A stretch of DNA of 64,000 nucleotides from Granulicella sp. (lineage in GTDB: Bacteria; Acidobacteriota; Terriglobia; Terriglobales; Acidobacteriaceae). The translations under genes were made by a program, and so were the position numbers. The stretch's first letter is position 1, and every line of letters starts with the position of its first letter. Of the stretch, positions 30,865 to 42,736 are shown piece by piece. The notes under the pieces are model-generated. The model made no database searches, was not told the origin of the DNA, and saw only the letters and a program-made list of their open reading frames with translations. The stretch lies in NCBI GenBank assembly GCA_027339965.1, contig DAHWNL010000014.1:32001-96000 (forward strand), in the 5' to 3' direction.

Positions 30865-32412
30865 TCATCTGGTCACTGGATTCAGCGACTCGGCCGCGGG
30901 GCTCTTCCAGCGCAGCACCGGCTTTCGCGCCGCGGAGGTCTCATCGAGGCGTTGCATCCGTGTCGTATGGGGCGCGGTGCGCACCAGTTCCGGGTTTTCT
31001 TCTGCTTCGCGCGCAATCTGCCGCAGCGCGTCGATCAAAAGATCCAGCTCCTCGCGGCTCTCGCTCTCGGTCGGCTCGATCATCATGGCTCCGGGAACCA
31101 CCAGGGGAAAACTGACCGTGTAGGCGTGGAAGCCGTAGTCGATCAGCCGCTTGCCCATGTCGCCGGTCTTGACGCCGGGCTGGCCGTCCTTGCGCTGGGA
31201 CTGCAACCGGTCGCTGAAGACCACCTCATGCAGGGAGGGCGACTTGTAGGGCAGATCGAAGACTCCCTCCAGTTTGGCCCGGATGTAGTTGGCGTTGAGT
31301 ACGGCATCCTCTGTGGTCTGGCGCAGGCCGTCCGGTCCGTTGGCCAAAATGTAGGCCAGCGCGCGGACAAACATGCCGAAGTTGCCGTACCAGGCGCGCA
31401 CCCTGCCAATGCTCTGCGGCCGGTTGTCGACCAGGCTGAGCGAGCCGTCGGGAAGGCTTCGAATGGTCGGCACGGGGAGAAACGATTCGAGGATCTGCTT
31501 GCAGGCCACCGGACCCGAGCCCGGTCCGCCGCCGCCGTGGGGCGTGGAGAAGGTCTTGTGCAGGTTCAGGTGCATCACGTCCACGCCGAAGTCTCCCGGC
31601 CGGGTCTTGCCCACCAGTGCATTCATGTTGGCGCCGTCCATGTAGAGCAGCGCGCCTTTGGCGTGCAGGATGTCGGCAATCTTGTGAATCTCACTCTCGA
31701 AGACCCCGATGGTGGAGGGATTGGTCAACATCATGGCGGCCACGTCCTGGTCCACCATGCGCTCCAGCTCGGCCAGGTCCACCATGCCCAGGGAGTTGGA
31801 CTTCAGGTTTGCCACCTGATAGCCGCATATTGCCGCCGTGGCCGGATTGGTGCCGTGCGCGGAGTCTGGAATGATGATCTTCTTGCGCGCGTCGCCCCTG
31901 GACTCCTGATAGGCGCGGACCAGCAACATCCCCGTGAGCTCTCCCTGCGCTCCGGCCGCCGGCTGCAGTGTAATCGCCTCCATGCCGGTGATCTCCAGCA
32001 GGCAGTCGCTGAGCAGCTTCATGATTCCCAGGGCGCCCTGGCTGAGCGACTCGGGCTGGTAAGGATGCGCCTCCGCGAGACCCTCCAGTCTGGCCACCGC
32101 TTCATTGATGCGCGGGTTGTACTTCATGGTGCAGCTCCCCAGCGGATACATCCCCAGATCGATGGCGTAGTTCCAGGTGGAGAGCCGGGTGAAGTGACGG
32201 ATGATCTCAATCTCACTCAACTCCGGCATCACGCCCAGGCCGTCGCTGCGCAGGGCGTCTCCCAGCAGCGCAGAGGCGTCCACCGCCGGAACGTCCAACT
32301 GCGCCAGGCGGTACGCCTTCTTGCCCGGAGAAGAGTTTTCAAAGATCAGATTCTCCTTCTGATTGACGTGCGTTGTGGCCTTCTTCGGCGTGCCCACAAA
32401 CCTATCTGACAT
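30865..32412 (-). CDS. gcvPB: Glycine dehydrogenase (decarboxylating) subunit 2
   Basis: YPLGSCTMKYNP, QPAAGAQGE, SAHGTNPA, YMDGAN, HLNLHKTFSTPHGGGGPG (PLP Lys), IEPTESES. Confidence 0.95.
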   Translation of the reverse strand: MSDRFVGTPKKATTHVNQKENLIFENSSPGKKAYRLAQLDVPAVDASALLGDALRSDGLGVMPELSEIEIIRHFTRLSTWNYAIDLGMYPLGSCTMKYNPRINEAVARLEGLAEAHPYQPESLSQGALGIMKLLSDCLLEITGMEAITLQPAAGAQGELTGMLLVRAYQESRGDARKKIIIPDSAHGTNPATAAICGYQVANLKSNSLGMVDLAELERMVDQDVAAMMLTNPSTIGVFESEIHKIADILHAKGALLYMDGANMNALVGKTRPGDFGVDVMHLNLHKTFSTPHGGGGPGSGPVACKQILESFLPVPTIRSLPDGSLSLVDNRPQSIGRVRAWYGNFGMFVRALAYILANGPDGLRQTTEDAVLNANYIRAKLEGVFDLPYKSPSLHEVVFSDRLQSQRKDGQPGVKTGDMGKRLIDYGFHAYTVSFPLVVPGAMMIEPTESESREELDLLIDALRQIAREAEENPELVRTAPHTTRMQRLDETSAARKPVLRWKSPAAESLNPVTR

Positions 32413-32515
32413 TCTTGCCTCTCTTCCAAATCTAATTTGCACTCCCCGGGGCCATGCCGGCGCTTTGGGGAGGCTCGGGTTGCGTCGTTCCAGGTTCACT
32501 GCCCGCTGCCCGGCG

Positions 32516-32878
32516 CTAAAACTCCTGTTCGTCCAGGCCGCTGCCGTCGGCGGAGTAACTGCCCGCCTCCGGCCCTTCCAGATCCTCTTCGCGCAGGCTG
32601 AGTGCGATCACGGTTCCGGATTCGAACTCTACGGTCAACGCATCCATCTCCTCCAGCGAAGCTTTGGCAACCATCTCGCCAATTTGCGCGCAGAGCGCAT
32701 TGCGGTACTGCGGCTCGGTGAACGCCAGGGAAAAATCCGCCAGCAGGATGTGGGGCCATGCGTAGAGGGTGAGCATAGGGCCGGGTGAGCCCGGCACGTC
32801 GCCAAAGCGCAGCCGCAGGTAGTCACCCACAAACTCCACAGCGGTAAGCTCTTGCCCTTCCAGCGCGCTCAGGTCCAT
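32516..32878 (-). CDS. Hypothetical acidic protein inside the gcv operon
   Basis: MDLSALEGQELTAVEFVGDYLRLRF... starts 2 nt after the gcvPA stop, with an AGGAG RBS inside the gcvPA end. Confidence 0.7.
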   Translation of the reverse strand: MDLSALEGQELTAVEFVGDYLRLRFGDVPGSPGPMLTLYAWPHILLADFSLAFTEPQYRNALCAQIGEMVAKASLEEMDALTVEFESGTVIALSLREEDLEGPEAGSYSADGSGLDEQEF

Positions 32879-32880
32879 GG

Positions 32881-34332
32881 CTATCGCGCTCCTGTGAAGG
32901 CTTGTTGGGGTTCGGACGGTGGTGCGATGGAGGAGCCGGGAACATAGAGAAGCGCGGCGGCAAGGTCGATCTGGGCGCGAGTGGTCAGCTCTGTGGCGCA
33001 CCACAGGGTAGCGCTTGCACCCAGCTCCGGGTACCACTTCTCCAGCGCCAGCCCCCCGACGATCTGCTGCTCCAGCAGGCGGGCGTTCATCTCCGCCGCC
33101 GGCTCCCGGGTGCTCAGCACAAACTCGTGGAAGTGGGGAGCGGAAAAGATCCGCTGTCCGCCCGCCGAGCCAAGCGCGGCCTCCAGATAAGCCGCCTTGG
33201 CCAGGTTCTGTTCCGCCAGTTCGCGTAGTCCCTGCTTGCCGTAAACGGTCAGGAAGATGGTCACCATCAGCGCCACCAGTGCCTGGTTGGTGCAAATGTT
33301 GCTGGTCGCCTTCTCCCGTCGGATGTGCTGTTCACGAGTGCTCAGCGTTAGCACAAAGCCGCGCCAGCCGTTGCCATCTGTGGTCTCGCCCACCAGGCGT
33401 CCGGGCATCTGGCGCAGGAACTTTTCTTTGCACGCGATCACGCCGCAGTATGGCCCGCCATAGCCCACCGGTACGCCGAAGCTCTGGGCTTCGAGCGAGA
33501 CGATATCCGCCTCCACCGGGGCTCGAACGATGCCCAGACTGACAGCTTCGGCGATAGAGACGATCAGCAGCGCTCCCTTGCGATGCGCAATCTCCGCGGC
33601 GGCGGCCACGTCTTCGATCACTCCGAAGAAGTTGGGAGACTGGAGAAGGATGCAGGCTGTCTCGGAGGTGACTGCGGCGTCCAGCGCGTCCAGATCCAAT
33701 CGTCCGTCTTGCCGGGATTGGCCGGAGCCCGGGGCGATGTAGCCAACTTCGGTGATGGGAATTCCCTGATGCCGCGTCAAGGTGGCGAGCACCTCGCGAT
33801 ACTCCGGGTGTACCGTTCTCGCCACCACCGCACCCTGCCTTCCCGTGACGCGGCAGGCCATCAGCACGCTCTCCGCAGCGCCCGTGGAGCCGTCGTACAT
33901 GCTGGCGTTGGCAATCTCCATGCCGGTCAGCTCGCAGATCATGGTTTGAAACTCGAACATCGCCTGCAGCGTGCCCTGCGCGATCTCCGGCTGATAGGGG
34001 GTATAGCTGGTGAGAAACTCGCCCCGCTGCACCAGAGAATCGATGATCGCGGGGCGATAGTGCCGGTAGGCTCCCGCGCCCAGAAAGCTGGCTACGGACC
34101 GGCCTCCGGCGGGACGGGCCGCGAGCTCCTCGGCATCGCCGCTGGCCAGATTCGCGGCATAGGCGCGAAAGCGGTCCAGGATCTCCGACTCCGCGTGCTG
34201 TCGCGGAATTCTTAGATCCCTCTCCAAACGGTACTCCGCCGGTATGGTCTCAAACAGAGATCCGATGGTGGAGACGCCGATCTCGGTGAGCATCTCCTGG
34301 CGTTCCGCCGCGGATTTGGGTAGATAACGCAT
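32881..34332 (-). CDS. gcvPA: Glycine dehydrogenase (decarboxylating) subunit 1
   Basis: [57 protein letters not shown]. Confidence 0.95.
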
Positions 34333-34352
34333 CGGTTCGGTTTCCTCTCTCT

Positions 34353-34407
34353 TGGCTGCCGGCTTGTGGCTGCCGGCCTGTGGCTGCCGCTTGTGGCTGG
34401 CCGCTTG
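34353..34407. repeat. Degenerate 7/14-bp tandem repeat (TGGCTGC-CGGCTTG) x about 4
   Basis: tggctgccggcttg tggctgccggcctg tggctgccgcttg tggctggccgcttg in the gcvH-gcvPA spacer. Confidence 0.8.
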
Positions 34408-34572
34408 CCGTCTTGACATGGTCGGTCCCGCAGCCTTCCAAGTGGCCGACCAGAGGTCTTGCATCCGCCGCATCGGCCCCGGAGGTGATGAGGACGGGGA
34501 GCAAGCGGCCCGGAGCCTGTGCCGACCACAAATCTCCTGTCTGCCGGCATCGCTGCTCCCGGCAGTTGGTTT

Positions 34573-34959
34573 TTAGTGGCCGGACTCCTCGGCAACAAAC
34601 TTCTGATACTCGGCTGCGCTCAGCAATCCTTCAGCCGGAGATCCTTTGGCCGCGAGCCGGATGATCCAGGTCTCGTTGGCTGCCTTGTTGATGGTCTCCG
34701 GCGTGTCGTTCAGCGCGGAGTTCACCGCCGTCACGGTTCCCCCGATCGGGGTGTAGAGATCGCTCACGGCCTTGACCGACTCTACCGACCCAAAGGTGGC
34801 GCCGGCCTCAAACTCCTGCCCGACCTTGGGCAGTTCGACGAACACAATGTCACCCAGGGAATCCTGCGCGTAGTCGGTGATGCCCACCGTGGCGGCGCCA
34901 CCCTCCAGCAGCATCCACTCGTGCGATTTGGCGTAACGATAGTTTTCAGGGTAGCTCAT
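34573..34959 (-). CDS. gcvH: Glycine cleavage system H protein
   Basis: SHEW, VGITDYAQDSLGDIVFVELP, lipoyl site VESVKAVSDLY. Confidence 0.96.
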   Translation of the reverse strand: MSYPENYRYAKSHEWMLLEGGAATVGITDYAQDSLGDIVFVELPKVGQEFEAGATFGSVESVKAVSDLYTPIGGTVTAVNSALNDTPETINKAANETWIIRLAAKGSPAEGLLSAAEYQKFVAEESGH

Positions 34960-35223
34960 GATTCCTCTCAGGTTCCAGCGTGTGGCGCTGCTTCAATTTT
35001 AGGCAGCCCGGCGGTGAAAAGCGAACGCCGCAGGCCGAGACAGACAATGGGTACCTTTGGCCTGCCCGGGGGCAGGAAGCAGACCTCGACTCGTCGGCTG
35101 CGATGGGTGCCGGAGGCATGGCCGGTTAGATCCGCCGGCGGGAGGCGGCCTTCGTTTCTCGATCGCGGCTCAGCCGGAAGAGGAGCCGTGCTTGCAGATC
35201 CACAAACTTTCTGTCTTCACAAC

Positions 35224-36393
35224 CTAACCCAGCACAGCCGGGGCAGTCACGCCCTTCGTGCGTTTATAGAACGGGGTGGGAACCACCACCGCTTTTATCT
35301 TCTGCCCCCGAATCTCCACGCCGACCTCCGTGCCCGGCTCTGCAAAGGCCATGGGGACGTAGGCCAGAGCGATGTTTTTCTTGAGGAAGGGCGCGGGGGA
35401 GCCGCTGGTGATGGTTCCGATGGGCTCGCCCTGAAGGTTGAGAACCGGGTAGCCGTCCCGCCCGATGCCGCGCTCGACCATCTCCAGCCCGACCAGGCGC
35501 TTGATGGGGCCGCCGTTCTGCTGCACCTGAAGAAGCGCCTCGCGGCCCAGAAAGTCCGCGCCCTTGTCCAGCTTGCAGTAACGCCCCAGATTGGCCTCCC
35601 AGACGTTGATCGATTCGGAGATCTCGTGCCCGTAGAGCGCCATGGCCGACTCCAGACGCAGGGTGTTGCGCGCGCCCAGGCCGCAGGGCAGGATGCCGAA
35701 CTCCTCTCCTGCGGAGAGCACCTCAGCCCAAACCCGCGCGCCGACCGCTTCATCGGAGGGGACGTAAATCTCGAAGCCATCTTCGCCGGTGTAGCCGGTG
35801 CGGGCGATCAGCACGTTATGCAGGCCGCAGACCTGGCCCCAGGTAAACCAGTAGTTTTTGATCGGCGTCAGGTCAACGGGGGTGACCTTCTGCAGCGTGG
35901 CCATGGCTTTGGGCCCCTGGATGGCGATCTGGGTGTAGTAGTCGCTGACGTCGGTGATGTGCAGCCCGCCCATGCCGCTCAGAGTCTGGCGTACCCATTG
36001 GACATCCTTATGACGGGTGCCGGCGTTGATCACGATCAGGTAGTCGTTCTCGCTGAGCTTGTGCAGGACCACGTCGTCCACGAAGGTTCCGTTGGGGTAG
36101 AGCATGGCCGAGTAGTGCGCCTGGCCGACCTGCAGTTTCGTGGCATCGTTCATCAGCAACTTCTGGACCGCGGCGAGCGAGTTGGGCCCGCGCAGTTGGA
36201 TGTCGCCCATGTGCGAGACATCGAAGATTCCTACGCCGGTGCGAACGGCCATATGCTCGTCGATGAGCCCGCTGTACTGCACGGGCATCTCCCATCCGCC
36301 AAAGTCCACCATGCGCGCCTTGTGCGCCAGATGCGTGTTGTACAGCGCTGTGCGGCGCAGCGCAGCCGCTGCAATGGATTGGGTATCGCTCAT
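35224..36393 (-). CDS. gcvT: Glycine cleavage system aminomethyltransferase T
   Basis: MVDFGGWEMPVQY, FDVSHMG, ARTGYTGEDGFEIY, GLGARNTLRLE, PFYKR. Confidence 0.96.
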   Translation of the reverse strand: MSDTQSIAAAALRRTALYNTHLAHKARMVDFGGWEMPVQYSGLIDEHMAVRTGVGIFDVSHMGDIQLRGPNSLAAVQKLLMNDATKLQVGQAHYSAMLYPNGTFVDDVVLHKLSENDYLIVINAGTRHKDVQWVRQTLSGMGGLHITDVSDYYTQIAIQGPKAMATLQKVTPVDLTPIKNYWFTWGQVCGLHNVLIARTGYTGEDGFEIYVPSDEAVGARVWAEVLSAGEEFGILPCGLGARNTLRLESAMALYGHEISESINVWEANLGRYCKLDKGADFLGREALLQVQQNGGPIKRLVGLEMVERGIGRDGYPVLNLQGEPIGTITSGSPAPFLKKNIALAYVPMAFAEPGTEVGVEIRGQKIKAVVVPTPFYKRTKGVTAPAVLG

Positions 36394-36592
36394 GAGTGTC
36401 TGCCTCTGCTCCGGGCGCTCCGCCGCCTGGACGCAGCGCGCTCGAACACAGTCAAACGATATCAAACGCCAGCCCCCGGGCGCGAACGGCCGCCCGGTGG
36501 AACCGCGCGTTGCCGGGAAGCATTCCCGCAAAGCAGTTTTTCGCGCTCGCTCCCGGTGGCCGTGAATCGAACCTTCGGGCGTTCCTGCCGGG

Positions 36593-39500
36593 CTATTTGA
36601 CAGCGAGCGTGAGCACGGTGGAGTGCGTCAGCGGGCCGCAGGTGAGGGTTACGGTGATGTTGTAGGTCTGGGGATCGATGGGGAAGGCTACGTTGTCTCC
36701 ACAGCCGCTCAGGGTTGCGCTGAGGGCGATTCCGGCGGCGAGGATCAGCAGCAGAGCGATCTTCTGAGAGAACTTCCTGGCGGAGCGGCGAAGCGTCAGA
36801 GCCAGGGGCAAAAGGAAGATCGCCCACACCACCGGCTGCCCGCCGCCGGCGCGCTCCCGGGAATGCAGCCGCGACGTCTGGATCAGATCCTGAACCGGGA
36901 CGTTGAAGGTGAACGACAGCGGATTGAGCTTGATGTTGGCGGGAATCTGCCAAGAGGTTGCGGTTATTTTTGTCCACGGTTGGGTGTTGAGCGTGACCGT
37001 TCCGTCTGGGGCCAGGCCGGTGACAGAGAGCAGAGATGCCTCAGGGAGGCTCGTGCCGATGTTGGGGATGACCGCAACCTGAAACGTCGCCGCCACTTTG
37101 GGGAGAACTGTCTGCATGGCGCCGGTGCTACCGGTAGGCGCCAGGCGAAAGTCGATTAAATCTTCCGTAATGGGGGCGCTGCTCAGAGCAAGGTAATCCG
37201 TTGAGCCGCCATAGACCGCGGTGATGGTGTCCGCCCCGGGGGGAAGAGACGAGGTAGAGAAGCTGGCTATGCCCCCGGTCAAGGCAGAAGTGCCCAGAGC
37301 GGTTGTTCCATCCATCAGCGTGACGGTCCCGGTCGGCGTACCGACGGTAGAGACCACAGAGACGCTAAAGTTCACGGGAGATGTCGCCAGCGTCGAGCTG
37401 GGTGCGCCGGTGAGGTTGATGGCCGGAGTGGCGGGCTGGATGATCAACGTTCCGGTTGTGGAGCCCGTATAGTCCGAGTTGGTCACTGTGGCCGTGACGG
37501 GGTAAGATCCCGCAGCCACTGGTGGAGAGACGTTCCCTGAGTAGGTTATGCGGACGCCGATGCCCGTGGGGTTGGTGGTCGCCGTGGCGGAGAGCGGTGA
37601 GCCGGAGTAGATCTGCACCAGGTTGCCCAGAGTGATCGCCGCTGTGGCTTGATTCACCGTGAGGGTTGTGGAGCCGGTGGCGGGGTTGTAGTCGGCAGCA
37701 TTGGAGGGCGTAAAGCTGACGTTGAGCGTCTGCTGGCCGACGGATGGCACCGCGCCGGCGGCTGGAGAATAGACGTAAGTTCCTGCCACCGATGCGTTGT
37801 TGAAGCTCGCGGAGGCGTCAAGCTGTGTGCTGCTCAAGGCCGTGCCGTAGGCGATGGCCGCGGGAGCGGCCCAGAGGATGGTGGGGGTTGCCTTGGCGAT
37901 GGTGATCACGCCGGTGGCCGTGCCCGTGTAGTTGGTGCTGTTCACCGTTGCGGTAACGGTGTAGGTTCCGGCGTTGGTGGGAGGCGTGGGCGAGGCCGGG
38001 TACGCCGTGCCGCCCGTGCCGGTGTAGGTGAGGGTGACAGGCAGGTTGCCAGGGTTGGTGGTGGCTGTGACGGAGACGGGCGCGCCGGTGTAGGTCTGCG
38101 TCGAGCTGCCTACCGTCACGGTTGCTGTGGCTTGATTGACGGTCAGGCTGCCGTTGGCCGAGGTGGCTGTCCCGTAGTCGCCCGCGGCCGCAATGGTTGC
38201 AGTCACCGTGTAGGGAGTCGTCGATGCCGTCAGGCTTGCGGGGGGGACGGAGGCCGTGCAGGTCACCAAGCTCTTCGATGCTGGGCTACAGGTTGCCGGG
38301 GCGGAGACGCCCCCAGCGCTGATGCTCACGGTTTCAGTGGAAGGCGTGCTGCCGGAGTAGGCAACCGTCACTGACAAGGTTGTGGATGCTCCGTAGGTGG
38401 TGGACGCTGGGTTGGTGGGGGACAAGGTGAGCGTCGGCGTTGCCGCGCTCACGCTGATGCTGAAGGGCGCGCTGGTCACGGCCAGATAGTTGCCGCCCTC
38501 AGAGCTGCTGGCCGTCACTGCGCATGTGCCCACGCCGACATAGGCTACGGTGGCGCCACTCGCTGTGCAAACGCTTGGGGTGGAGCTGCTCAGCGTGGGC
38601 GTTCCGTAGTAGCTTCCGGAGAAGGTGACCGTTGCCGAACCGCCGTAGATGCCCGAGGTCGGGCCGGTGATGGTCAGTGTGCCCGGCGCCGGGCTGATGG
38701 TCAGCGTCGCGGTGGCGGAGGTGCTAGCGACCAGGTTCGTCGCTCCGCTATAAACCGCCGTCACGGTGTAGCCGCCGGCTGCGGCTCCAGCAGGAATCGT
38801 ATAGCTGGTGCTGGCCGCGCCGTTGCTTACCGGTATGTTGCTGACCGCCGAGCCGATGAGGTTGCCTCCGTTGAAAACCTTGAAGGTGAAGGTTCCCGCG
38901 TTCACCGTCGTGCTGCTGTTGGTGGTGTCTGTGACGGTTGCCGAGAGCGTCACGGACTGCGGGCTGGTGCTGAAGGTGGGCTGCTCAGGGACGACTACTG
39001 TGGTCGCCGTCGCGTCCATACCAGAGGAGCCGCTCAAGAAGGCCGTCTGCTGGAAGGATGGCAGCGAGTTCAACGCAGCCTGATAGGAGTTATCCGTCAG
39101 GGTGACGGTGCTGGTCAACGATCCGGGCGTCTGCGGAGCAAACTCGTAGCTGAGCGCGCAGCCGAGGCCAAAGCCGAGCGAGAAGCTGGTGGAGCAGGCG
39201 GAGTTCGCTCCAGCCTGCTGGACGAAGTCGGTGCTGTCGCTGGCAGCGATTCCCGGCTTCACGGCCTTCAGATCTTGGTTGCCGATGTCGGTCAGGGTGA
39301 CGGTTTCAACGCCGTCGGTGGTGTCGGTGGAGCCGACGGGAGTCGGCGTGGGGAAGGGCATGGTTGCCGCTGTGGATGCAATCTCTTCGAGACTGCCTTC
39401 GCTGGTTGCGGTGAGGTAGAGATCTCCGGCGGCGTCCAGGGCCACGCCGCCGCCGGGCGTCAGCGCGGCCTGAGTGGCTGGAATGCCGCTGTTGCTCTGG

Positions 39501-42500
39501 CTGCCGCTCTGGCTGCCGCCTCCAGCGATCGTGGTGATGATATCGGTGGAAGCCGAGACCATGCGCAGGCGGGTTGCGGCTGCGCTGTTGTCCAGAACGT
39601 AGAGGTCGCCGGCTGCGTCCACGGCGAGGCCGGCAGGCTGGGCGAAGGTAGCGCTGGTGGCCGCACCGCCGTCGCCGGAGATCGACCCGCCCTCACCCGG
39701 CGTTCCCGCATCCACCGAGAGAGTGCCGGAGGAGAGTGCCAGCTTCCAGACCACGTAGTTGCCAGTGTCGGCGATATAGAGGTTGCCGCTGGAGTCCAGC
39801 GCCAGGGCGGACGGAGCGTTGATCTGCATGTTCACCGCCATGCCGCTGGGGGCAGTGTATCCGCAGGCTCCGGTTCCGGCGATGGTGTTGATTTCGCCGT
39901 CAGCCGCCGTGATCTCGCGAACCACGCAGGCTGCGGCGTCGGCCACATAGAGGTTGCCGGACCCGTCCACGGTGACCGCGTCCGGCTCCTCAAAGGTCGC
40001 GCCGGTCGCCGGGCCGCCATCTCCGCTGTCTCCTTTGTTGCCGATCGTTCCCGCAACCTTGGTGATGATGCCGGTGACCGCTGATACTTCGCGCAGCACG
40101 TCGTGACCCTGGTCGGCGATGTACAGGTCGCCGGCGCCATCGAGGGCCATGCCCTGAGGAGAGGAGAGCGTGGCCTGGGTGGCTGGGCAGCTATCGCCGA
40201 TGTTGTCGCTGCTGCCCGGGCAGATGGAGCCGCCTCCGGCAAAGAGTGCCGCTGCGCCTCCGTCCTGCGCCAGCTTGACGATCTGGTTGTTTCCGCTGGA
40301 GGAGATATAGAGGTTACCGGCAACATCGGCGGTGAGAGCGCCGGGCGAGCTCAGCCCGCTGCTCAGCAGCGTGGAGAGCGTGCCTGGCTCCAGGGCCGCT
40401 TCGGCGCCCATCCCGACACCGCTGATGTACGCCGTGTTCAAAAGCGCGTTGCCGCTGCCGAAGATCTCCACCGCGCCCAGGCGCAGGCCCGGAGCCTTGG
40501 GAGAAAAATTGACGGTGACTGTGCAGCTCGATGGAGAAGAGTAAGTGCCTGCACAGGTTTTGCTGGCCAGGGTGAAGTCCAGGTTGGGAATCCCCTCGGT
40601 GACAACAGCTACGCCGGTGATCGCTGTTCCGCTGCTGACGCCGAAGGAGATCGTGCCTGTGCCCAGGGTGGGCGCGCCCACCGGGGTGTTGGGTAAGGTG
40701 GTCATCGTTGGACTGGTGACCGTGTTGGGCGGAGCGGCGAGCGTGCTGATGATCAGAGTCTGCGTTGCGCTGCTGGAGAAGGCGCTGCTGGAGGCTGCCG
40801 CGTCCACCACCGCCTGGCTGGTGGCCGGCGCGTTGGCGGTGACGGTGACGGCGACCGTGACGGAGTCGGTCGCTCCCGCATCGATCGGATGCATCAGGGT
40901 GCAGCCCAGCGTCGCCACACTGCAGCTCCAGCCCCCGCTGGGGTCGATCATGGAGACCGCGTTCATGCCGCTGGGCAGCGTGATGTTCAGCGTCACCGTA
41001 GGATAAGTGGTGATTGCGGTGCTGTTGGGGTTGTAGACCGAGAAGGTGAGCGTTCCGTCCGTCTCGCCGTCGGTAAATGTGACGGGAGTGCTGGTCGAGC
41101 CGGGCGAGTCGGCGGAGATGGTGACCCCAGGCGGGGTCAGGGTGGGTACAGCGAAGCTCATCATGTTGAAGAGGCTGTACTCCAGCATCAGCTCCTGAGG
41201 GCTCATCGGGCTACTCTTGGCGCGGTCCGATGCGCTATCGTCGATGCACTCATTGGGGAAGACCGTGGAAGCGCTCTCTTTGGCATTGTCGACGTGATAC
41301 TCGTTGTACATCACCTGCCCAAACTGAGAACAGCCGTCCGAGCAGACCGGGGCGTAGAACGAGAGTTGCATGACGTCGCCGTAGGTTGTATCCGTGGCCC
41401 AGGAGAGAGTGTTATACGCCTTGTCGACGCCGGACTGATTGTTCCAGACGTAGTTGAGCGTGGTGGACCCTTGCTGGGTTGTGGCCTTCAGGTTCTGGAG
41501 CCACTCCGCGAGCGCGGCTCCGTTGGGGAAGCTCTGGTCGATGGTTACCGGGACATTGGTTGTGTTGCTATAGGGACCGGTGTCACCGTTGTTCCAGTTC
41601 TCCGCAGCCAGCGCGGTGTTATAGACGATGCTGTCCTGGCTCGAACTCACGTTGTCCGGATTGTCGATGTAGAAGGCGCTATGATGCGTGGCGAAGATCC
41701 GTCCGCCCGAGTTGATGAACCCGGCGGCGTTGGTCTCCCCCTGAAGACTCGTATAGTTCGTGGGATAGGCCTGGCAGGGCAGCAAAAGCACGTTGTAGTC
41801 GTCGGCAAACAGACCGGAGCCCGTGGCGACGGCCGTTCCGCTTCCCGTGCCCATCAGGTAGCTCTCCAGATGCGATGGACTCACTGCCTGCGTGGACGTG
41901 TAGTAGCTTGGCGCCGAGACGCCGGAGTTGCCGATGCCATTGTAGAGATTGACCCGCCCGGTGGGTCCGGCGGAGGGATCGGAGCTGGTGCTGTTGATGC
42001 CCACGCTCAGGTCCGTGAACTCGGAGTCGCTGATGCCCGCCTTGCGCAGGGTACACTCCAGCGCGTCTATCTCGCCGGTCACCAGGGCGATGTGCGGGAT
42101 GTCACCCTCCCCCTGGTTGCGCGCAAAGCGAACCGTGGTCGGCTCGCCATAACCGCTCAGCGACGAGCTTCCGCCCTGGGTGACGTTGCTGGAGCTGAGC
42201 CCGGATGGCTCGGTCTCCGTCGCTCCGACGGCGGTGGTCAAGGGCGGGCTGGCTGGAGCCGAGAACAGAGCCGTATTGCCGCAGGCGGTCACCTGAGCGA
42301 TGACAAACTGACGCCGCCAGCGGCCAGACTGAATCACCAGCGGAACATTGCTTCCAGCCGGAACGTCGGAGAGGGTGAAGGAGCCGTTGATTCCGGTGGT
42401 GGTCTGCACCAGCGGCGAGCCGCTCACCAGGTTGGCGTAGCTGTCCAGTACGGGATTCGCCGTGTTCACTCCGTCGGTAAAGGGCTGGACGGCGGTTCCA

Positions 42501-42736
42501 GGAATGTATACGAGAATGTTGGGGAGGGGGTTGATCCCGGCTGGATCATAGACGGTGCCGCTGATGGTCGTGGTCTCCCCGGCGGGACAGACCACCTGCG
42601 CGTAGGTGGATTGAGCCCGGGCAGGAGCAGGTCCCGGCAGCAGAGCCAGAGGCAGCGCCGCCGCCAGGAATGGCCGCCAACGGACATCCCGGAGCGCAAG
42701 ACGCTGAGCGGATTTACGAATCCACGGATCTCGCAT
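36593..42736 (-). CDS. Large secreted multi-domain surface protein: carboxypeptidase-regulatory-like domain, uncharacterised N-terminal domain, NHL-repeat propeller, multiple Ig-like/MBG domains, C-terminal TM hairpin with lipobox
   Basis: 2047-aa Ser/Thr/Gly-rich ORF with signal peptide (..ARAQ), NHL repeats (GDLYIAD, GNLYVAD, GDGGPATGA), repeated AGxYTVTAT Ig strands, and a C-terminal hydrophobic pair ending LSGC. Confidence 0.85.
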   Translation of the reverse strand: MRDPWIRKSAQRLALRDVRWRPFLAAALPLALLPGPAPARAQSTYAQVVCPAGETTTISGTVYDPAGINPLPNILVYIPGTAVQPFTDGVNTANPVLDSYANLVSGSPLVQTTTGINGSFTLSDVPAGSNVPLVIQSGRWRRQFVIAQVTACGNTALFSAPASPPLTTAVGATETEPSGLSSSNVTQGGSSSLSGYGEPTTVRFARNQGEGDIPHIALVTGEIDALECTLRKAGISDSEFTDLSVGINSTSSDPSAGPTGRVNLYNGIGNSGVSAPSYYTSTQAVSPSHLESYLMGTGSGTAVATGSGLFADDYNVLLLPCQAYPTNYTSLQGETNAAGFINSGGRIFATHHSAFYIDNPDNVSSSQDSIVYNTALAAENWNNGDTGPYSNTTNVPVTIDQSFPNGAALAEWLQNLKATTQQGSTTLNYVWNNQSGVDKAYNTLSWATDTTYGDVMQLSFYAPVCSDGCSQFGQVMYNEYHVDNAKESASTVFPNECIDDSASDRAKSSPMSPQELMLEYSLFNMMSFAVPTLTPPGVTISADSPGSTSTPVTFTDGETDGTLTFSVYNPNSTAITTYPTVTLNITLPSGMNAVSMIDPSGGWSCSVATLGCTLMHPIDAGATDSVTVAVTVTANAPATSQAVVDAAASSSAFSSSATQTLIISTLAAPPNTVTSPTMTTLPNTPVGAPTLGTGTISFGVSSGTAITGVAVVTEGIPNLDFTLASKTCAGTYSSPSSCTVTVNFSPKAPGLRLGAVEIFGSGNALLNTAYISGVGMGAEAALEPGTLSTLLSSGLSSPGALTADVAGNLYISSSGNNQIVKLAQDGGAAALFAGGGSICPGSSDNIGDSCPATQATLSSPQGMALDGAGDLYIADQGHDVLREVSAVTGIITKVAGTIGNKGDSGDGGPATGATFEEPDAVTVDGSGNLYVADAAACVVREITAADGEINTIAGTGACGYTAPSGMAVNMQINAPSALALDSSGNLYIADTGNYVVWKLALSSGTLSVDAGTPGEGGSISGDGGAATSATFAQPAGLAVDAAGDLYVLDNSAAATRLRMVSASTDIITTIAGGGSQSGSQSNSGIPATQAALTPGGGVALDAAGDLYLTATSEGSLEEIASTAATMPFPTPTPVGSTDTTDGVETVTLTDIGNQDLKAVKPGIAASDSTDFVQQAGANSACSTSFSLGFGLGCALSYEFAPQTPGSLTSTVTLTDNSYQAALNSLPSFQQTAFLSGSSGMDATATTVVVPEQPTFSTSPQSVTLSATVTDTTNSSTTVNAGTFTFKVFNGGNLIGSAVSNIPVSNGAASTSYTIPAGAAAGGYTVTAVYSGATNLVASTSATATLTISPAPGTLTITGPTSGIYGGSATVTFSGSYYGTPTLSSSTPSVCTASGATVAYVGVGTCAVTASSSEGGNYLAVTSAPFSISVSAATPTLTLSPTNPASTTYGASTTLSVTVAYSGSTPSTETVSISAGGVSAPATCSPASKSLVTCTASVPPASLTASTTPYTVTATIAAAGDYGTATSANGSLTVNQATATVTVGSSTQTYTGAPVSVTATTNPGNLPVTLTYTGTGGTAYPASPTPPTNAGTYTVTATVNSTNYTGTATGVITIAKATPTILWAAPAAIAYGTALSSTQLDASASFNNASVAGTYVYSPAAGAVPSVGQQTLNVSFTPSNAADYNPATGSTTLTVNQATAAITLGNLVQIYSGSPLSATATTNPTGIGVRITYSGNVSPPVAAGSYPVTATVTNSDYTGSTTGTLIIQPATPAINLTGAPSSTLATSPVNFSVSVVSTVGTPTGTVTLMDGTTALGTSALTGGIASFSTSSLPPGADTITAVYGGSTDYLALSSAPITEDLIDFRLAPTGSTGAMQTVLPKVAATFQVAVIPNIGTSLPEASLLSVTGLAPDGTVTLNTQPWTKITATSWQIPANIKLNPLSFTFNVPVQDLIQTSRLHSRERAGGGQPVVWAIFLLPLALTLRRSARKFSQKIALLLILAAGIALSATLSGCGDNVAFPIDPQTYNITVTLTCGPLTHSTVLTLAVK

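Follow-up and report, generated by a model that had tools for sequence, protein, structure and literature searches.

The gene at positions 36593..42736 (minus strand) of the window, the whole stretch of 64,000 nucleotides that was analysed, is an open reading frame for an exported Ig/NHL-repeat protein of 2047 amino acids that ends in a distinctive tail. The protein consists, in order, of a signal, a domain of about 500 residues, an NHL propeller, MBG_3 and Big_3_5 repeats, and the tail. The N-terminal signal peptide (residues 1-41; 42614..42736, minus strand), a call read from the sequence, is of the Sec/SPase I type with A-x-A followed by Q, and it has no lipobox. The N-terminal passenger domain (residues 42-540; 41117..42613, minus strand) has 81 homologs, and the NHL beta-propeller region (39407..40330, minus strand, limits approximate) is matched by Pfam NHL, TEN_NHL, and SBBP. 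The last stalk repeats before the tail are the Pfam domains MBG_3 (residues 1699-1770) and Big_3_5 (residues 1775-1857), at 37166..37642 (minus strand). Close relatives are 83-93% identical over residues 40-540 and have the same tail. The glycine cleavage genes gcvT, gcvH, gcvPA, and gcvPB, named by eye from their translations, lie directly downstream on the same strand (30865-36531 of the window, minus strand), and no link between them and the tail was seen.

The tail is real and widespread, and it places two membrane helices and a lipoprotein-type Cys inside the last Ig-like domain. Its purpose is probably to hold the 2047-residue protein at the membrane through a short, fatty-tagged peptide. 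All parts of the tail are encoded on the minus strand. The split Ig repeat starts with residues 1862-1948 (36893..37153), a part recognized by a profile of unsplit repeats and in an AlphaFold model. It is followed by a polar linker (residues 1949-1968; 36833..36892), which is a low-confidence loop in the model, and by hydrophobic helix 1 (residues 1969-1982; 36791..36832), which from sequence and model is predicted to be a stop-transfer segment running from outside to inside. The basic loop (residues 1983-1992; 36761..36790), predicted to be cytoplasmic, is the equivalent of a signal n-region, and hydrophobic helix 2 (residues 1993-2011; 36704..36760), also seen in sequence and model, ends in a lipobox. 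Cys2012 (36701..36703, codon 36703-36701) is the predicted site of lipidation and of LspA cleavage. The post-Cys peptide (36596..36703) has 36 residues from the Cys to the stop and contains strands at 2023-2033 and 2036-2046. A second Cys, at position 2033, is absent from one close relative, P0154. An earlier note on this DNA had read the last Ig domain as split by helix 1, a basic loop, helix 2, and a lipobox, and sequence, profile, and model bear this out. In homologs the linker before helix 1 has a median length of 24 amino acids and contains 18% Pro. Among 132 tails, the best 15-residue hydropathy of helix 1 exceeds 1.5 in 126, the basic loop has at least two K/R in 129, and the median distance from the last K/R to the Cys is 18 amino acids. 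The 19-residue hydropathy of helix 2 reaches 2.2.

By homology and in models, the strands after the Cys complete the Ig domain that starts ahead of helix 1. When 200 unsplit copies of the repeat are combined in a profile, it matches the tail in two colinear pieces and skips the hairpin, with profile positions 9-70 on residues 1871-1934 and positions 75-99 on residues 2022-2046. First halves of the repeat were scored 1142 times in 150 proteins, and 876 of them are followed directly by the closing strands, making them unsplit copies. Closing strands come after a gap in 26 others (18 hairpins and 8 skipped repeats), and 240 have no scored second half, four of these being hairpins. An unsplit copy is also found inside a GH38 protein of the same genome. 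The earlier note had matched the post-Cys peptides to the closing strands of the protein's other Ig repeats. That match is generic, because the protein's other repeats are MBG_3 and Big_3_5, and the true template is a different Ig repeat.

The AlphaFold2 model of the tail has a mean pLDDT of 79 and two helices, and its last two strands have a pLDDT of 88-94. The model puts the post-Cys strands in the sandwich as a single chain with the hairpin uncut, so complementation does not need cleavage. Taken whole, the tail model can be aligned with single Ig domains about 100 residues long (for example 1eut_A 404-502, Z 8.6, rmsd 3.1, 96 aligned), and structural Z values of this size reflect a common fold, not kinship. 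Foldseek found no clear relative of the tail (one match, E < 0.001). A two-chain model of the separated pieces scored 0.49 versus 0.02 for the best control, which the tool grades as weak support, and the halves of a split Ig domain can pass by likeness. Among solved pairs 116 of 157 reached the mark, and among mismatched pairs 2 of 215; scores of 0.60 or less account for only 18 of these solved pairs and for both mismatches. In the two-chain runs contact agreement was at least 93% and partner pLDDT at least 63. The predicted structures and the homology thus uphold the earlier proposal of a split Ig domain with strand complementation.

The Cys at the end of helix 2 is present in all 132 split tails. 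These were counted from 143 loci, with two duplicates and one locus without a tail left out. Six loci had been set aside beforehand (three weak matches from the same genome and three unpublished), and three further loci were missed by the filter, although their Cys is visible by eye. In an alignment of 35 tails the Cys is the only invariant column. Position -1 of the lipobox is A, G, or S in 126 of the 132 tails, and position +2 is Gly in 115 and Asp in none. The strict pattern [LV][ASTVI][GAS]C fits 34 of 132 tails and a relaxed pattern fits 119; Trp is found at -3 in 30 of the 132 lipoboxes. Six of the seven paralogs of this genome have the strict lipobox. As a chance control, internal basic-plus-hydrophobic segments were examined in other proteins of this genome, and such a Cys follows only 5 of 416. 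The arrangement of hairpin and Cys is not due to chance, given 132 of 132 tails versus 5 of 416 control segments.

The Cys was part of the profiles used to find the loci of the 132 tails, so two less biased sets matter here. In one of them, 150 proteins ranked mainly by their tandem Ig repeats, 22 of 22 repeats split by a hairpin have the Cys, and each of these is the last repeat matched in its protein. Among the 81 proteins chosen by their passenger domain only, 55 have the tail and the Cys, and none has a hairpin without the Cys. Judged from these sequence counts, the Cys is under selection, and its conservation, which the earlier note had proposed to check, is confirmed in every split tail.

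The tail had been thought undescribed, but at the cut-off it matches an existing NCBIfam family, NF058595 (invert_tail), which is catalogued as putative only. In NCBIfam release 20.0 the family is named 'lipo-invert putative C-terminal anchoring domain-containing protein'. Against its cut-off of 37 bits, residues 1957-2047 score 35.9 bits, and the genome search gives 37.2 bits. The match ends at the last residue of the protein, which is exported according to the signal read from its sequence, and the hairpin, lipobox Cys, and terminal strands are as in other NF058595 matches. The genome has seven copies over the cut-off, and six paralogs of the 2047-residue protein score 50-76 bits. Like the present tail, the NF058595 model spans the linker, hairpin, lipobox, and last strands, whereas the present tail is a divergent member. 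The split-Ig origin and the variants described below are absent from the family's name, the one element of the entry that was compared. No paper on the tail and no use of the term 'lipo-invert' was found in the literature searched. Pfam gave nothing convincing on the tail.

Tails of this type are found in 60 of 121 Terriglobia genomes. They are present in all members of three families, f1, f5, and f7 (17 of 17, 16 of 16, and 16 of 16), with 1 to 25 matches per genome, and are sporadic elsewhere in the class. Frames that bear the tail encode up to 4207 amino acids. Across the phylum 20 of 201 genomes match; outside the class there are only two partial matches, to the terminal strands, one of them in the unpublished genome G254. 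The tallies of tails, Lgt, and rhomboids include three genomes flagged as unpublished (G071, G087, and G095). From 301 confirmed tail relatives in a named collection 80 loci were kept, all from Acidobacteriota or Terriglobia, and no tail relatives were found in viral contigs. The earlier note's remark that such tails recur on many acidobacterial proteins is supported, with seven copies in this genome and matches in 60 of 121 genomes of the class. Some tail-bearing proteins are small, with a leader and one or two Ig-like domains and without an obvious enzymatic passenger (L153:1212-2246, minus strand; L152:3962-4903, plus strand; L034:2076-3182, plus strand). L008:1303-1647 (plus strand) holds a remnant of the tail, with lipobox and last strands but without the first part of the hairpin, and looks like a broken gene. 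Similar remnants occur in L144-L149.

The hairpin and Cys are also found in other positions and other contexts. In seven proteins the cassette sits one loop later, and the post-Cys piece gives a single strand, the last one. These are P0011 and six of the ten matches of one search (L188, L189, L190:1086-1520 on the minus strand, L191, L192, and L193). In this form the hairpin comes after the Tyr-corner strand, and in one case the whole post-Cys piece is 20 residues long. The linker before helix 1 has only about 8 residues in the single-strand variant. The model of this variant has a mean pLDDT of 83, with 90-96 for the last strand, and 86 of its residues align with 1eut_A 405-502 (Z 10.0, rmsd 2.0). 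P0126 and L177:1457-1864 (plus strand) have, as read by eye, an extra Ig-like domain between the Cys and the donor strands, with 136 residues after the Cys in L177. In L178:1082-1621 (minus strand) an IPT/TIG-like repeat, from a different Ig family, seems to contain the cassette; this is only partly shown, with Pfam TIG found in the preceding repeat and not in the split one, and a pairwise alignment of 30% identity in which the last strands are poorly placed. The lipobox is retained in the later-loop form, P0126, L177, and L178. The variants show that the cassette is portable, that it moves as a unit, and that it keeps the Cys.

The passenger domain is found both with the tail and in proteins that appear to be lipidated at the N-terminus. 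No convincing Pfam match was found for residues 42-540. The nearest Atlas clusters are mostly from Myxococcota (0.94-0.96), and the domain may have been transferred between the phyla. In homologs of the myxobacterial type the domain is part of lipoproteins of the N-terminal kind, which often have Cys-rich repeats as well. The 26 homologs that lack the tail, two of them named Polyangiaceae, include 17 with a call for an N-terminal lipobox, versus 1 of the 55 with the tail, and that one call proved false when inspected. Among 16 long proteins of this genome that are rich in Thr/Ser, six have the tail, six have an N-terminal lipobox, and none has both. These distributions are consistent with a model in which the tail stands in for an N-terminal lipid, and are not statistical proof of it. 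The cases of exclusion are not independent, because the split follows lineage (myxobacterial versus acidobacterial type), and the same exclusion would arise from any C-terminal anchor. Passengers that bear the tail include S53-type proteases and propeller-on-stalk proteins.

We give roughly an even chance to a mechanism in which Lgt, LspA, and Lnt produce a lipopeptide that keeps hold of the passenger through strand complementation, and a second cut, at helix 1, releases the pair to the outer membrane. Lipidation and the two cuts are predicted steps. First, the N-terminal signal would export the passenger. Helix 1 would then stop transfer and leave the basic loop in the cytoplasm, and helix 2 would bring the chain end back out, with Cys2012 at the periplasmic face, the side on which Lgt, LspA, and Lnt work, as expected from the positive-inside rule. 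The post-Cys strands fold, as homology and models show, into the Ig domain started before helix 1. Lgt would lipidate the Cys, LspA would cut before it, and Lnt would acylate it, giving a lipopeptide of 36 residues. A general intramembrane protease, perhaps of the rhomboid or RseP type, may cut at or before helix 1, and this is the weakest step. The release cut would have to fall in the linker at 1949-1968 or in helix 1. Held together by the shared sandwich, passenger and lipopeptide would form one lipoprotein anchored at the C-terminal end of the passenger, and the pair would go via Lol to the outer membrane and possibly through a type II-like secretin to the surface.

The cut at helix 1 is the step missing from the earlier scheme of anchoring. 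The split Ig domain and its complementation stand, but after LspA has cut, the passenger is still tied to the membrane by helix 1, and for this reason the lipid matters only if helix 1 is also cut. A Cys so strictly conserved therefore speaks for a second cut, at helix 1, and for export of the pair as one lipoprotein. A slightly bolder form of this reading, which we hold a little short of even, is that the tail is a mobile cassette of Terriglobia that turns the last one or two strands of a domain into a lipopeptide gripping the passenger non-covalently after its release from helix 1. The cassette would comprise the stop-transfer helix, the basic loop, and the internal lipoprotein signal, inserted in a loop of the terminal Ig domain.

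The general enzymes that the mechanism would use are encoded in the genome, which has two Lgt, LspA, Lnt, and LolA, and a secretin beside a pseudopilin gene, although the secretin scores below the GspD cut-off. No enzyme dedicated to the tail was found among the Lgt copies, including the second Lgt, two rhomboids, and the neighboring genes, and no recurring enzyme was seen among 1003 frames near tail genes. A dedicated Lgt does not fit the distribution: one Lgt is present in 15 of 16 genomes of the tail-bearing family f5, and in f3, where the tail is almost entirely absent, 10 of 17 genomes have two. The divergent second Lgt (L156:2671-3390, minus strand) lies beside rluA and seems to lack part of the usual motifs. 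Within the family sample it has close matches in only eight other genomes, all from f1, and was rejected as the tail enzyme. The first rhomboid is confined to f1 (14 of 17 genomes; 0 of 16 in f5 and 0 of 16 in f7), while the second is class-wide yet present in only 6 of 17 f1 genomes, and both were rejected. A third rhomboid of the genome looks inactive by eye. The alignment of 35 tails has no visible conserved cleavage motif before helix 1.

The lack of a release enzyme or motif in these searches is one reason to consider that helix 1 is never cut. The Cys would then be lipidated and LspA would cut, and the passenger would remain at the inner membrane, where its helices and the lipopeptide completing its last domain would hold it. 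Housekeeping enzymes would suffice for this, and Lgt, LspA, and Lnt are all present. Even so the lipid would be redundant, yet 132 of 132 tails have retained the Cys. S53-type proteases and propeller-on-stalk passengers would be expected at the surface from their appearance, and some relatives with the repeat end in a single plain helix without a Cys, a simpler way to hold a protein at the membrane. We regard inner-membrane retention as unlikely, at about half the credence given to release.

Rather more doubtful is the suggestion that the hairpin is an uncleaved two-helix anchor in the inner membrane. The Cys would then be acylated where it stands, if at all, and the lipobox would be a relic, left by an N-terminal lipoprotein signal inserted into the loop. 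The model of the uncut chain is well folded (pLDDT 79), the residue at -3 often departs from the canonical ones, and the Cys-Gly-Gly/Ser-rich start resembles that of the N-terminal lipoproteins of this genome. A relic would decay, however, and the small residue at -1, the Cys, and the signal-like spacing persist in three families and in independent insertion sites.

It is improbable that a dedicated sorting enzyme of the exosortase, myxosortase, or rhombosortase kind recognizes a tripartite signal in helix 1 and the basic loop and then cuts the passenger or transfers it, perhaps by a covalent link to a lipid or to the lipopeptide. Helix 1 and the Arg cluster are laid out like known C-terminal sorting signals, as described in 10.1101/2023.06.07.544157, and the genome has five CPBP proteases and two exosortases. 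On the other side, no signature motif is seen before helix 1 in the alignment, and no co-occurring or neighboring enzyme was found (two rhomboids and the neighboring frames). In addition, one exosortase is XrtJ, and PEP-CTERM-like targets exist in the genome. This Exosortase J (TIGR04199) is at L160:1933-3636 (minus strand), the second exosortase is on contig C2, and PEP-CTERM-like proteins are few. Of the five CPBP proteases one was scanned, and its scores lie far under the cut-offs of MrtJ and Mrt_core.

It is very improbable that translation starts internally, ahead of the basic loop, and produces a separate small lipoprotein that complements the large protein in trans. The stretch that begins with the basic loop does make up a full lipoprotein signal, but a start codon with a Shine-Dalgarno-like word is found in 6 of 132 tails versus 0-7 of about 131 in four control windows, the short frames checked look like gene remnants or small complete proteins, and no stand-alone lipopeptide genes were seen in 12 loci with short frames.

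The tail is found on 1 to 25 proteins in each genome of three families of a common soil class, among them proteases and adhesin-like proteins, and on that ground it may be one of the main ways to the surface of acidobacteria. The existence of the family and its status as a putative anchor were already known, and the mechanism would surprise specialists if confirmed. Added here are the later-loop single-strand variant, the extra domain after the Cys, and the alternation of tail and N-terminal lipobox among relatives of the passenger. Were the proposal true, the signal used by Lgt and LspA would be an internal one that follows a stop-transfer helix, and the lipid anchor would be joined to the protein by way of a donor strand. 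Knowledge of lipoprotein biogenesis would be widened, and a short tag for C-terminal display would become available. The housekeeping enzymes Lgt, LspA, and Lnt would produce a C-terminal, GPI-like surface anchor without a sortase, and a domain that is anchored N-terminally in myxobacteria would be displayed the other way round.

The tail has features in common with several known systems and differs from each of them. Lipoproteins, as outlined in PMC8048626, have a basic n-region, an h-region, and a [LV][ASTVI][GAS]C lipobox, with the Cys at the periplasmic face. The tail likewise has an n-region and an h-region, and its L-S-G-C fits that lipobox exactly (PMC8048626). Unlike a lipoprotein signal it is not N-terminal but internal, about 2000 residues in and after a stop-transfer helix, and the lipid would sit on a separate short chain. 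For MYXO-CTERM and myxosortase MrtX, PMC11980579 proposes lipidation followed by cleavage, with surface display via type II secretion. MYXO-CTERM is similar in being a C-terminal tag with an invariant Cys on many exported proteins. The MYXO-CTERM Cys comes before a single helix, has no lipobox with a set pattern, is inverted in its topology, and stays on the passenger (PMC11980579), while the Cys of the tail comes after the second helix and is followed by 35-73 residues that include a folded piece. GlyGly-CTERM with rhombosortase and PEP-CTERM with exosortase, as described in 10.1101/2023.06.07.544157, share the tripartite layout seen in helix 1 and the Arg cluster. The tail differs in that it lacks their signature motif, helix 1 is not terminal, and no cognate enzyme was found in the searches above; no conserved GG precedes helix 1 in the tail alignment, and neither of the two rhomboids tracks the tail. 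Strand complementation itself is known from type V pilins, for which PMC13655056 describes a lipoprotein precursor, proteolysis, and a terminal strand that fills a groove in a beta-sandwich. In type V pilins and chaperone-usher donor strands, the lipid is at the N-terminus and a polymer is assembled through strand exchange (PMC13655056). In the tail, by comparison, one chain supplies its own donor strands, and these would carry the lipid.
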